Below the pieces are notes generated by a model. It made no database searches. It was not told the DNA's origin and saw only the letters and a list, made by a program, of their open reading frames with translations. This document shows positions 48,376-50,853 of a DNA stretch of 62,521 nt, in pieces (positions within the stretch are counted from its first letter, which is position 1; each line of letters opens with the position of its first letter). The stretch is from positions 1 to 62,521 of the forward strand of contig MHGA01000027.1 in NCBI GenBank assembly GCA_001804415.1, read 5' to 3'. Made by a program: the position numbers and the translations under genes. Origin of the DNA: Candidatus Aquivivens invisus (lineage in GTDB: Bacteria; Omnitrophota; Gorgyraeia; Aquiviventales; Aquiviventaceae).

Positions 48376-48588
48376 TTACAAGCGAACGTTGGTGTAGATC
48401 GGGAAGGGATGAGGCAGAGGAGGAACCGCCTGAATCCTGGGGAGGCAGTCCAGGAACGACACGTAGACGTCAATGGGGCAGTCTTGGCCAAATCGCAGGG
48501 CTGCTTTGCGGAGCATCTCGAACTCCTCACGCACCTTGGGGTCGTGCGCCATGGCCTTCAACTCGCGTTTTTCTTCGTCACTGAGCAT
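48376..48588 (-). CDS. Small hypothetical protein coupled to the nucleotidyltransferase
   Basis: 70 aa, overlaps the upstream stop; MLSDEEKRELKAM. Confidence 0.6.
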   Translation of the reverse strand: MLSDEEKRELKAMAHDPKVREEFEMLRKAALRFGQDCPIDVYVSFLDCLPRIQAVPPLPHPFPIYTNVRL

Positions 48589-49129
48589 GATCAAACCGCG
48601 TTCGAAGCGCGTGGCCTTCTTCCCCCATTTCGAACAGCTCGAAGTACTCCTGAATCCGCGACCAATCCAGACGGCTGCCGTAGAGCTCCATCAACGTCTC
48701 GATGTCGACCAGCTCCCGGTTGCGTCGCTTAGGGTTATTGGCCATCGCTTGGACCTTGAAGCCGATCACATCTTCCGGATCGACGCTGCGGATCTGCAGC
48801 GCCCCTGAAAAGATGGGACGACTCTTCACGCGTTGCAAGATCGCCAGCGACGGCGATCGAAACCCATGGAGGATGTCCACGCCGCCCCAGACGGGATCAG
48901 GATGGGCATAGTGAGACACGTTCTCCGTGACCGCCGCTCGTTGATAGCCCAGCGTCGTCATGAGCTGATGGAGCTGACCGAGATCCTCATGATGAACCAA
49001 AAAATCCAAATCCTGCGTTCCGCGCGGCGCTCCCAACACCCCCATGGCAAAGCCGCCGACCGCCGCGTAGCGGATCTGGTGGCGGTCGAACTCGGTCAAG
49101 AGGGTGTTGAGCACCTGAGAGAAGTCCAC
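48578..49129 (-). CDS. Pol-beta-superfamily nucleotidyltransferase (AbiEii/MenT-like signature)
   Basis: AVGGFAM...PRGTQDLDFLV (GG..R.T.D.D), VDILHG, GFKVQA. Confidence 0.8.
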   Translation of the reverse strand: MDFSQVLNTLLTEFDRHQIRYAAVGGFAMGVLGAPRGTQDLDFLVHHEDLGQLHQLMTTLGYQRAAVTENVSHYAHPDPVWGGVDILHGFRSPSLAILQRVKSRPIFSGALQIRSVDPEDVIGFKVQAMANNPKRRNRELVDIETLMELYGSRLDWSRIQEYFELFEMGEEGHALRTRFDHAQ

Positions 49130-49164: not shown

Positions 49165-49281
49165 CCAACCCTGCAGGAGCGGCGCGTGAGAAACGCTGAA
49201 AATTCTTTAGTCGTGCTGAACCGTGCGTAATTTTCTGCCTCTTGACGACCCCCCCCACGATCAGGCATGGTTTCAGTAAGA

Positions 49282-49437
49282 CCTCGACAAAGGCAAACCC
49301 ACGGTAACGTGGGGACGCCCCGCATGCTTTGCTTCGCAAAGCAAGCCTGCGGGGCCCCACAAGTCTGTTTCGCGAAGCGAAACATGTGGGGCAACACCAC
49401 GGATCCTTCGCGGAAGGACAGCCGGGTTGCCGAATGG
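49282..49437 (+). ncRNA. c-di-GMP-I (GEMM-I) riboswitch interrupted by a 74-bp insertion
   Basis: CGACAAAGGCAAACC-CACG-GTAA-CGTG-GGGACG [insert] CAACACCACGGATCC...GGACAGCCGGGTTGCCGAA. Confidence 0.8.
49318..49391. repeat. Two tandem 37-bp palindromic REP-like units
   Basis: CCCCGCA..TTGCTTCGCAAAGCAA..TGCGGGG and CCCCACA..GTTTCGCGAAGCGAAAC..TGTGGGG. Confidence 0.85.
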
Positions 49438-49455
49438 CAACCCGGTTTTTGTTTT
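49422..49455 (+). terminator. Intrinsic terminator (riboswitch expression platform)
   Basis: CCGGGTTGCC-GAAT-GGCAACCCGG-TTTTTGTTTT; the 5' arm is the aptamer 3' strand. Confidence 0.9.
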
Positions 49456-49560: not shown

Positions 49561-50238
49561 ATGAACCGCATATACGCAACGATCTTCACCGCGAGTCTGA
49601 CGCTGAGTGCCCTACCAGCCCACGTGTGGGCTGACTGCCACCATGAGCCCCCCCTGTTCTCGACCGTCAGCACACAGGACGTTCGGGACGTCGGCACAAC
49701 GTTCGCGGTCGTCGCCCGAGACAAGTTCTGGGGTTGTCCTACGGGCAAGGTGACCCTTACGGCGGTGGGAGCTCCGGTTACGCCTACTCTCACCCCGGGT
49801 CCTGGAGAAGCGGCGCTGACTTTCAAAGTACCAGCAATATTCACGCCCGGGATTTACCACATCACCTATACGGCAACGGACGAGCTCAACAACACCACGT
49901 CCGTGACCCTGCCCCTGAGGACTGGGTACTCCAACTCAACGCCCATCCTCAGCCCAGTCAGCGACATCGTCGCGCCTGTCTACAAGTTGACGGGATTCTC
50001 CGTGGCACTCACTGACCGTGATGGGGATCTGCCCATCACCGAAGACGCGCTGAGGATCGATGGCCTGCCTGAGGGGACACGGAAGGTTCTTCTGCGACTC
50101 TCCTCCAGCGAAATCGTTTACCAGGTCACACTCTACCCTTCCAGCGGCCAGCGAGGAGCGGTCTACCAAGTCCTCATCAAGGGAAAAGATTCGCGAGGGG
50201 GTATTGTAATCTCTCAGATGCGAGTGCTGGTTCTCTAA
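49561..50238 (+). CDS. Secreted beta-rich protein, possibly tandem Ig/cadherin-like domains
   Basis: Signal peptide; YHITYTATDELNNT, VALTDRDGD, VLIKGKDSRGG. Confidence 0.65.
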   Translation: MNRIYATIFTASLTLSALPAHVWADCHHEPPLFSTVSTQDVRDVGTTFAVVARDKFWGCPTGKVTLTAVGAPVTPTLTPGPGEAALTFKVPAIFTPGIYHITYTATDELNNTTSVTLPLRTGYSNSTPILSPVSDIVAPVYKLTGFSVALTDRDGDLPITEDALRIDGLPEGTRKVLLRLSSSEIVYQVTLYPSSGQRGAVYQVLIKGKDSRGGIVISQMRVLVL

Positions 50239-50262: not shown

Positions 50263-50853
50263 ATGCGCAGAATTCCTGTCGTGTTGCTGTGCACCGTCTT
50301 GTGTGGTCTCACATCGACCGCTGAGGCGACGCAGGAAGGAGGGGGGCCTGGCGGGGGCAGTGGACCATCCGAGGCCATTGTCGCAGCCTCGGCCCTCCGT
50401 CGGACAATCGTCGTGCTTGATGACATGACGCCGATGGAGCGTCAGCAGATCGTTCCGTGGCTTGTCCAGCGCATCAGCCAGCAATCAGACGTCTATGTCA
50501 ACAGCCAACTCAGCGAGCTGCTCGAGGAGCGGCTCATCCAGCTTGGCGATCTGTCCTCGGAACGCATAGAAGCGCTCGAGGCTTCGGCACTGTCCGAGGA
50601 GGAGATCGGGCTGACGGGTGAAGAGCGAGAGCACTTCAACGCGCTGGTCCGGCGAGAGCAAGCTTCTCCGCTGCCTGAGGACGACATCCGTCAAGAAATC
50701 CTCGGGATGACGCTCGATCGGGATCAGCCTGAGCTTACGCTCAATCGCGCCATGGAGCTTGGGACGATGATCGAACGTATTCCAGACGAGAGCGTACGGC
50801 TCGCCCTACGGAGGACGCTGGAAGACAAACTGGTGGAGCTGCAGCCTCACTAA
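50263..50853 (+). CDS. Secreted helical hypothetical protein
   Basis: Signal peptide, Gly-rich linker, acidic helical body. Confidence 0.6.
   Translation: MRRIPVVLLCTVLCGLTSTAEATQEGGGPGGGSGPSEAIVAASALRRTIVVLDDMTPMERQQIVPWLVQRISQQSDVYVNSQLSELLEERLIQLGDLSSERIEALEASALSEEEIGLTGEEREHFNALVRREQASPLPEDDIRQEILGMTLDRDQPELTLNRAMELGTMIERIPDESVRLALRRTLEDKLVELQPH

Follow-up and report, generated by a model that had tools for sequence, protein, structure and literature searches.

What are two palindromic hairpins doing beside the binding pocket of a bacterial riboswitch, how did they come to be there, and can the RNA that carries them still be used? The question is raised by a leader located in a 62,521-nt stretch of DNA (hereafter, the window). 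Sequence comparisons confirmed that nucleotides 49283-49455 correspond to a class-I c-di-GMP riboswitch with its terminator, interrupted at 49318-49391 by two 37-nt hairpins, H1 and H2 (Table 1).

The initial annotation had described a GEMM-I aptamer split by 74 nt, and the two halves did match models of the c-di-GMP-I clan separately: at a permissive Rfam threshold, RF03167 matched 49283-49325 with 33.1 bits and RF01051 matched 49366-49434 with 23.7 bits. At the gathering score the interrupted ("filled") allele was unmatched and only tRNAs were called in the window, so that Rfam misses this form, as had been anticipated. The 5' half of the aptamer reads ...ACAAAGGCAAACC-CACG-GTAA-CGTG-GGGACG (final letters GGGGACG at 49317), and the 3' half reads CAACACC..GGATCC..GGACAGCCGGGTTGCCGAA. 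The pocket residues G20, A47 and C92 (Vc2 numbering) were all found in the cmscan alignments, as G49292, A49393 and C49430, with the annotated G falling on model position 20. The P2 stem pairs CCCACG with CGUGGG and has a GUAA cap, and across the insert its two closing pairs, G21-C46 and C22-G45, can still form. The insertion had been annotated between the G45 and C46 equivalents; its exact boundary is ambiguous by 2 nt (C44/G45/C46).

The best-scoring model, RF03167, describes the "GGC" variant, a name that we take to denote a G at the position-47 equivalent. The model consensus is GACGCGAA; the window and its natural empty allele, described below, both read GACGCAAC, with an A in the position-47 column, and the high RF03167 score comes from other columns of the model. 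Since the column that defines the GGC variant holds an A instead of a G, the window pocket is of the G20/A47/C92 type.

As annotated, the 3' strand of the aptamer is also the 5' arm of a strong terminator, with 12 pairs and a T run; this arm coincides with the P3/P1 3' strand. By its architecture, the leader is predicted to be a transcriptional ON switch upstream of two small exported proteins, the first of which is nearly without homologues (3 found). The candidate promoter was not matched in a strict sigma-70 scan, and the same promoter layout is also present in the related leaders L063, L076 and L041, introduced below. The sequence was absent from the RNA-seq runs searched. On the opposite strand, 48578-49114 holds a divergent NTP_transf_5/AbiEii-like nucleotidyltransferase gene and a 70-aa partner (the small ORF below it), possibly a toxin-antitoxin-like pair.

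Table 1. Features of the interrupted leader and its genes, in window coordinates (R1, covariance model of the hairpin unit)
Feature	Position	Strand	Basis and remarks
Candidate promoter, TTGACG-N18-CATGGT	49242..49271	+	Read by eye; putative
Aptamer 5' half	49283..49317	+	cmscan to RF03167, 33.1 bits
P1 5' strand	in 49283..49317	+	cmscan to RF03167
G20 equivalent	49292	+	cmscan alignment (model position 20)
G21/C22 equivalents	49293-49294	+	cmscan alignment
P2 (P1b) hairpin, GUAA loop	49298-49313	+	cmscan alignment
GAC	49314-49316	+	
G45 equivalent	49317	+	
Hairpin H1	49318..49354	+	37 nt; reverse orientation of the family unit; R1 58.7 bits, minus strand
Hairpin H2	49355..49391	+	37 nt; R1 51.3 bits, plus strand
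Aptamer 3' half	49392..49434	+	cmscan, window and empty allele L002
C46 equivalent	49392	+	
A47 equivalent	49393	+	
C92 equivalent	49430	+	
P3, P1 3' strand	in 49392..49434	+	cmscan alignments
Intrinsic terminator	49420..49455	+	12 pairs 49420-49447, then T run; MFE structure
First controlled gene, 225-aa exported protein	49561..50238	+	No Pfam family
Second controlled gene, 196-aa exported protein	50263..50853	+	

Each 37-nt unit closes on itself through CCCC/GGGG, as had been read from the sequence at the outset. The units had also been called tandem repeats, a description that had to be abandoned: H1 is the reverse-complement orientation of an H2-type unit, so that the two are mirror images and not direct copies. 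H1 has an outer stem of 7 bp, an inner stem of 8 bp, a TTC loop and a 4-nt bulge on its 3' side, and H2 has an outer stem of 7 bp, a 4-nt bulge on its 5' side, an inner stem of 8 bp and a GAA loop. When H2 (CCCCACA-AGTC-TGTTTCGC-GAA-GCGAAACA-TGTGGGG) is compared with the reverse complement of H1 (CCCCGCA-GGCT-TGCTTTGC-GAA-GCAAAGCA-TGCGGGG), three of the differences are compensatory. The apex of H2 (UUUCGCGAAG, 49368-49377) is complementary to that of P3 (CUUCGCGGAA, 49406-49415), a feature not conserved in L063.

Three other identities were considered for the insert and rejected. A CRISPR array was dismissed on account of identical "spacers" and single copies, and a k-turn because the pairs after the bulge are Watson-Crick. 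Pairing of GCUUUGC in H1 with GCAAAGC of the aptamer, as a conserved alternative fold, is absent in the window.

The initial annotation had proposed that removal of the insert restores a canonical GEMM-I sequence, and that an empty allele be sought in relatives. Through the downstream 225-aa protein we found five assemblies of the locus (L001-L005). Two of them (L003 and L004) are filled, L001 has an N gap at the insert and the L005 contig begins inside it; L002 (GCA_001805685.1) lacks precisely the 74 nt. Apart from the insert, L002 is 100% identical to the window over 2,832 + 3,848 nt (6.68 kb), with 0 SNPs. This natural allele reaches 61.7 bits on RF03167 (gathering score 59) and also exceeds the threshold of a second family of the clan, whereas the filled allele passes neither; since L002 passes the RF03167 threshold, the de-inserted sequence is a canonical aptamer.

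Both forms also occur in natural populations, as observed by aligning Logan unitigs of public groundwater and soil runs to the locus. Only the filled path was present in runs X1-X4 and X6 (the last at 30x). Four runs were mixed, showing the filled path together with a joint that skips 74 nt (49316 to 49391, with 2 nt of ambiguity), at empty/filled depths of 2.2/9.2 (X9), 10.5/6.1 (X10), 6.0/13 (X12) and 5.1/7.2 (X14); a further run, X13, looks like the X10 data filed twice. In X15 only the empty form was seen, at 25x, within a 7.8-kb contig. The unitig joints of these runs showed 74-nt skips alone and never the 37-nt skip expected of single-hairpin loss, meaning that the unit of gain or loss is the doublet.

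Stable hairpins are known to provoke PCR deletions, and assemblies do break at the insert (the N gap in L001, the contig end in L005), so the polymorphism might in principle stem from misassembly or from a polymerase that jumped the hairpins while the libraries were made. We regard such an artefact as highly improbable, because the empty share ranges from 0 (X6) to 100% (X15) between runs and because the equally structured sister loci, described below, show no skip in the same runs. Moreover, the empty form is also found in a curated MAG.

In ViennaRNA predictions for four leaders (window, L063, L041 and L076), H1 and H2 each folded on its own with high probability, and the rest of the window leader adopted the same fold with and without the insert. 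In the reference aptamer Vc2, the pairs G21-C46 and C22-G45 appear in the holo state only, and C44 makes a tertiary pair with G83 (PMC11705072). Because the module lies at these two pairs and adjoins C44, its insertion could well damage binding. A perfect four-way junction is possible, since G45 precedes H1, C46 follows H2 and linkers are absent; the junction could also branch-migrate by one or two steps, as G49317 can pair with C49355 and G49354 with C49392. In such a junction of P2-upper, H1, H2 and P2-lower, H1 would stack on H2 and make the P2 helix continuous, and the G21-C46 and C22-G45 pairs could still form, which would leave the aptamer usable. The module could be neutral, affinity-tuning or pocket-disabling.

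When metagenomes were scanned with a pattern based on the H1/H2 units, 60 loci were returned. Four of these, L063, L076, L041 and the AT-rich L045, are further leaders of the GEMM-I type in which a hairpin pair occupies this junction. All four share the zero-nt linkers and the mirror layout of the window. Three of them (L063, L076 and L041) gave only sub-threshold local Rfam matches, at 28-31 bits, and L045, which Rfam did not match even below threshold, was assigned to GEMM-I through an alignment by eye. The MAG GCA_003528865.1 contains a window-type locus on contig 29, an L063-type locus on contig 62 and an L076-type locus on contig 46, and the depths of the latter two track that of the window locus across runs. 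Binning and read depth together indicate that one genome holds at least three hairpin-bearing riboswitch leaders. The L063-type locus was filled in 10/10 assemblies and the L076-type locus in 7/7. The initial picture of a single accidental insertion is untenable, given that homologous pairs are found, again at this junction, in two or more additional leaders of the MAG and also in other organisms.

Different leaders precede unrelated genes. Those of the window and L063 encode exported proteins of unknown function, whereas the L076 leader precedes a lipoprotein-YtxH-HEAT operon and the L041 leader precedes pseudopilins (a database look-up for the L041 pilin-like protein gave no record). The proteins encoded behind the window and L063 leaders show no detectable relationship, so duplication of whole operons does not by itself account for the leaders. 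From promoter to aptamer end, window 49216-49434 and L063:5328-5539 are 82% identical over 219 nt. The promoter-plus-riboswitch leader appears to behave as a portable cassette.

Some further leaders deserve mention. Loose ends in the read graph indicate that this H1 variant follows one or more additional 5' halves, and a community leader joined to it reads AAAACGCAAACC, with C at the position-20 equivalent. L045 has an A there (AAGAGCAAAC, L045:3380-3400), the signature reported for cGAMP-selective GEMM-Ib. In a truncated GEMM-I-like leader (L050:1431-1719, reverse strand), the insertion junction is occupied by one family hairpin alone, and P3 contains another two-tier hairpin; this leader may be a single-hairpin form. 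In the groundwater run X29, a contig aligned to L041:1690-1753 shares the 5' aptamer half of L041 and continues after GGGGACG into a different hairpin (TCCGCCACACAGCGTTGGCGGA), neither CAAAGCC nor the H1/H2 pair; it may represent another kind of insert at the same site. Finally, the leader segments on either side of the hairpin pair in L041 (L041:1546-1593 and 1722-1753) reach 5-6x the locus depth in runs X27 and X28, which suggests several near-identical paralogous leaders in the L041 organism, one with a diverged middle of similar length.

Among the four GC-rich leaders, the hairpin pair is 0.81-0.96 identical, whereas the aptamer flanks reach 0.57-0.76 (Fisher p from 6e-3 to 2e-6). H2 is identical between the window and L063 (37/37), and so is H1 between the window and L041 (37/37), while the aptamers have diverged. 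When the five expanded aptamers were aligned, 98.4% of cells were paired. P2 showed compensatory changes in 5/6 pairs, whereas the H1/H2 stems barely changed. The A47 and C92 equivalents are kept in 5/5 and G20 in 4/5 (A in L045), and a terminator that overlaps the aptamer is retained in the window, L063 and L045. Passive inheritance would not account for a pair that is more conserved than its flanks; gene conversion among copies in one genome is a possible cause of its slow evolution. In the case of recent, independent insertions, the covariation in P2 would carry no information on how the aptamer functions once interrupted.

The hairpins belong to a larger family. From 81 matches we obtained 60 distinct sequences, and the 54 with a length of 37 nt are all of the two-tier type. 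Where the search pattern imposed no base, pairing is maintained through different bases: pair 14-28 is AU in 28 members, UA in 16, CG in 9 and GC in 1, with 0 unpaired, and pair 17-25 is UA in 35 and CG in 16. Positions 5-7 of the outer stem also covary with 31-33 in the family alignment. Members occur, several per genome, in MAGs labelled Omnitrophota, Planctomycetes, Elusimicrobia and other uncultivated lineages. A scan of genome contigs gave 19 members with a pattern one base longer than the window units, which it left unmatched; these members still matched because many end in GGGGG.

Family members often lie 3' of stable-RNA genes (5S rRNA, 6S RNA, tRNAs); examples directly downstream of a 5S rRNA gene and a 6S RNA gene are at L026:2570-2660 and L056:900-991. 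Many are preceded by a hairpin A (AACTTAC..GTAAGTT) and a linker GCGAATTAAC, sometimes in 96-nt tandem units. The composite of hairpin A, GCGAATTAAC and 37-nt hairpin can be seen at L044:780-1000, L030:1-330 and L031:800-1000, and larger palindromes of the form A-B-A' are also present. Neither the 37-nt hairpin nor its A+B composite is covered by an Rfam family, and a scan of viral contigs for the doublet signature found nothing. In its behaviour the family is REP-like.

The distribution in the window genome is narrower. With R1, run with filters off over 92.5 kb (the window plus L063, L076, L041 and L045), the only match besides the riboswitch hairpins was L076:3330-3367: no other copy in the 62.5-kb window and one extra in about 30 kb of sister loci. 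A longer GC stem with TTTT behind it (L076:3322-3375) encloses this copy and serves as a terminator-like end to the riboswitch-controlled genes. In the run graphs, the right end of H2 has only three contexts, all riboswitches. The two sister loci account for both the extra H2 depth and a 33-nt unitig, which were rejected as signs of dispersed copies. In their own communities, the hairpin words of L045 and L041 likewise have a single context. On the basis of these 92.5 kb and the read graphs, family hairpins in the window genome occur almost only inside riboswitches.

Several explanations of the module must be weighed against these data. The pair might be an active non-autonomous palindromic element, REPIN- or MITE-like, that homes specifically to GEMM-I DNA, at the junction GGGAC(G)/(G)CAAAGC, and undergoes precise excision; filled and empty states would then be insertion or excision events, and each sister leader would have been colonised separately. 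An inverted doublet of REP-like units that is lost as a doublet and never as a singlet does recall REPINs (PMC3116915), and the difference between alleles with 0 flanking SNPs, the conservation of the pair far above that of its flanks (H1 37/37 with L041, H2 37/37 with L063) and a hairpin family that is widespread and multi-copy in other genomes all fit such mobility. A source of copies is nevertheless missing: about 92 kb held riboswitch copies and one terminator copy only, the contexts of H2 in the community graph were riboswitches only, and the hairpin words of L045 and L041 had a single context each. Furthermore, the homing reading lacks a transposase, neither a target-site duplication nor a tag motif was seen, and the orientation is identical in 4/4 GC-rich leaders. 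Homing seems to us rather unlikely. We consider it unlikely, too, that selection maintains the pair as a functional domain in a GEMM-I subclass, either a sequence-specific protein platform or a folding or pausing device, which would provide a second input or shift the c-di-GMP threshold and whose loss would be a heritable regulatory change. Stems near-invariant in sequence next to P2 stems that change freely, a fixed position with zero-nt linkers in five leaders (an AT-rich hot-spring organism included), confinement of the pair to riboswitches in the window genome and the filled state of 17/17 assemblies of two sister loci would all be expected of such a domain. However, a clean loss, with no other changes, reaches 100% in one sample (X15), which makes the module dispensable at least at the window locus. 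Loops and bulges differ between copies, no partner protein is known, and the same hairpin type stands behind 5S rRNA, 6S RNA and tRNA genes and in a terminator, as typical REP-like passengers do.

Alternatively, the insertion may inactivate the aptamer and leave the operon locked OFF by the terminator, with the empty allele as the functional form, ancestral or revertant. The site lies within the ligand-dependent P1b pairs and adjoins A47 as well as C44, the partner of G83 (PMC11705072); in addition, the filled form falls below the Rfam threshold, and the canonical empty allele is fixed in one sample. The Rfam failure, however, is expected from insert length alone, and an inactivated aptamer would be hard to reconcile with the same interruption in at least five leaders with intact cores, GNRA loops and terminators, with a P2 that covaries, and with sister loci that are filled in every assembly. 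Inactivation is, in our judgement, distinctly improbable. A broader formulation, which we entertain only tentatively, is that of a five-helix c-di-GMP-I subclass in uncultivated groundwater bacteria, in which the pair would be either an accessory domain recognised by its sequence, with a second input for the switch, or a palindromic element homing to the most conserved junction of the aptamer; in natural populations its clean gain or loss would be a heritable toggle for operons under c-di-GMP control.

The explanation that we prefer, with about even confidence, is that of a REP-derived accessory module that is inherited with the riboswitch-leader family, tolerated as a four-way junction and losable as a unit. 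This 74-nt module, at the base of P2 (P1b) between the C44 and C46 equivalents of a genuine class-I c-di-GMP riboswitch, consists of two mirror-image two-tier hairpins that would derive from, or share ancestry with, a widespread REP-like family. Its inheritance would follow that of a family of leaders, each a promoter plus riboswitch, of which the window MAG has at least three and unrelated groundwater and hot-spring organisms have others. Tolerance of the insert, presumably with a retained response to the ligand, is indirectly favoured by the P2 covariation, by the preservation of pocket residues and terminators, and by the 17/17 filled assemblies of the sister loci. At the DNA level, loss would take both hairpins together, with its ends exactly at their feet, likely through hairpin-mediated replication slippage or REPIN-like excision, and loss of a doublet at that place fits either route (PMC3116915). 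A recent loss in part of the natural population would have regenerated the canonical aptamer.

The window locus is a new architectural variant of the class-I c-di-GMP riboswitch, whose REP-like pair is naturally removed in part of the population. The insert stands 1-3 nt from the adenine that intercalates into c-di-GMP, inside pairs that are ligand-dependent in Vc2. If the expanded aptamers work, the pocket tolerates a four-way junction and standard covariance-model annotation misses a whole set of riboswitches. With filled and empty alleles that have no other difference over 6.7 kb, nature has already provided an isogenic comparison. That the pair recurs at one site, and that its hairpins are so unusually conserved, poses the testable question of whether small palindromic repeats can be domesticated by a regulatory RNA or targeted to it. 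In our literature searches we found no description of a hairpin-expanded GEMM-I aptamer.

Compared with known c-di-GMP-I/GEMM-I riboswitches (Rfam clan CL00126; RF01051 and RF03167; reference Vc2, from Vibrio cholerae), the window leader shares the core AAAGGCAAACC...GGGACGCAA...AGCCGGGyUGCCGAA, the GNRA-capped P2, the G20/A47/C92 equivalents and a terminator overlapping the 3' aptamer strand. It differs by carrying 74 nt inside the two-pair P2/P1b base, which turns a three-way junction into a five-helix arrangement. Although c-di-GMP-I-GGC (RF03167) is its best model, the position-47 equivalent is A, as in canonical c-di-GMP-I.

Palindromic elements are tolerated inside functional genes, as exemplified by the Rickettsia palindromic elements and intragenic REPs. 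In these cases, as in the window, a small hairpin repeat resides in a functional macromolecule where looping out is possible. Unlike these elements, the window pair has a ligand-sensing RNA as its host, its site adjoins the pocket, and the same site is filled in several paralogues.

The REP superfamilies, reportedly treated by Di Nocera et al. 2013, and the REPINs offer another parallel. The window module likewise comprises two imperfect palindromes in inverted orientation (H1 on the minus strand, H2 on the plus strand), with compensatory changes that keep the stems; its doublet is the unit of loss, and related single hairpins follow genes and stable-RNA genes. In contrast, the window units have no spacer, a GTAG/CGTC-type tag was not seen, only one copy outside the riboswitches, in a terminator, was found in 92.5 kb (R1, filters off), and the riboswitch-borne pairs lie inside aptamers, always at one position. 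REPINs, too, are lost as doublets, which singlets are not (PMC3116915).

A last similarity concerns the hairpin tip. The invariance of GCGAAGC in the family is a matter of ascertainment, because the motif was in the search pattern, and the riboswitch-borne copies that were not pattern-selected have other loops (GGA, TCC, GCA). The DNA mini-hairpin d(GCGAAGC) is extraordinarily stable (PMC13037366), and the same GCGAAGC forms the apex of H2 and of most family members; such an apex would fit a role of these elements as folded single-stranded DNA.
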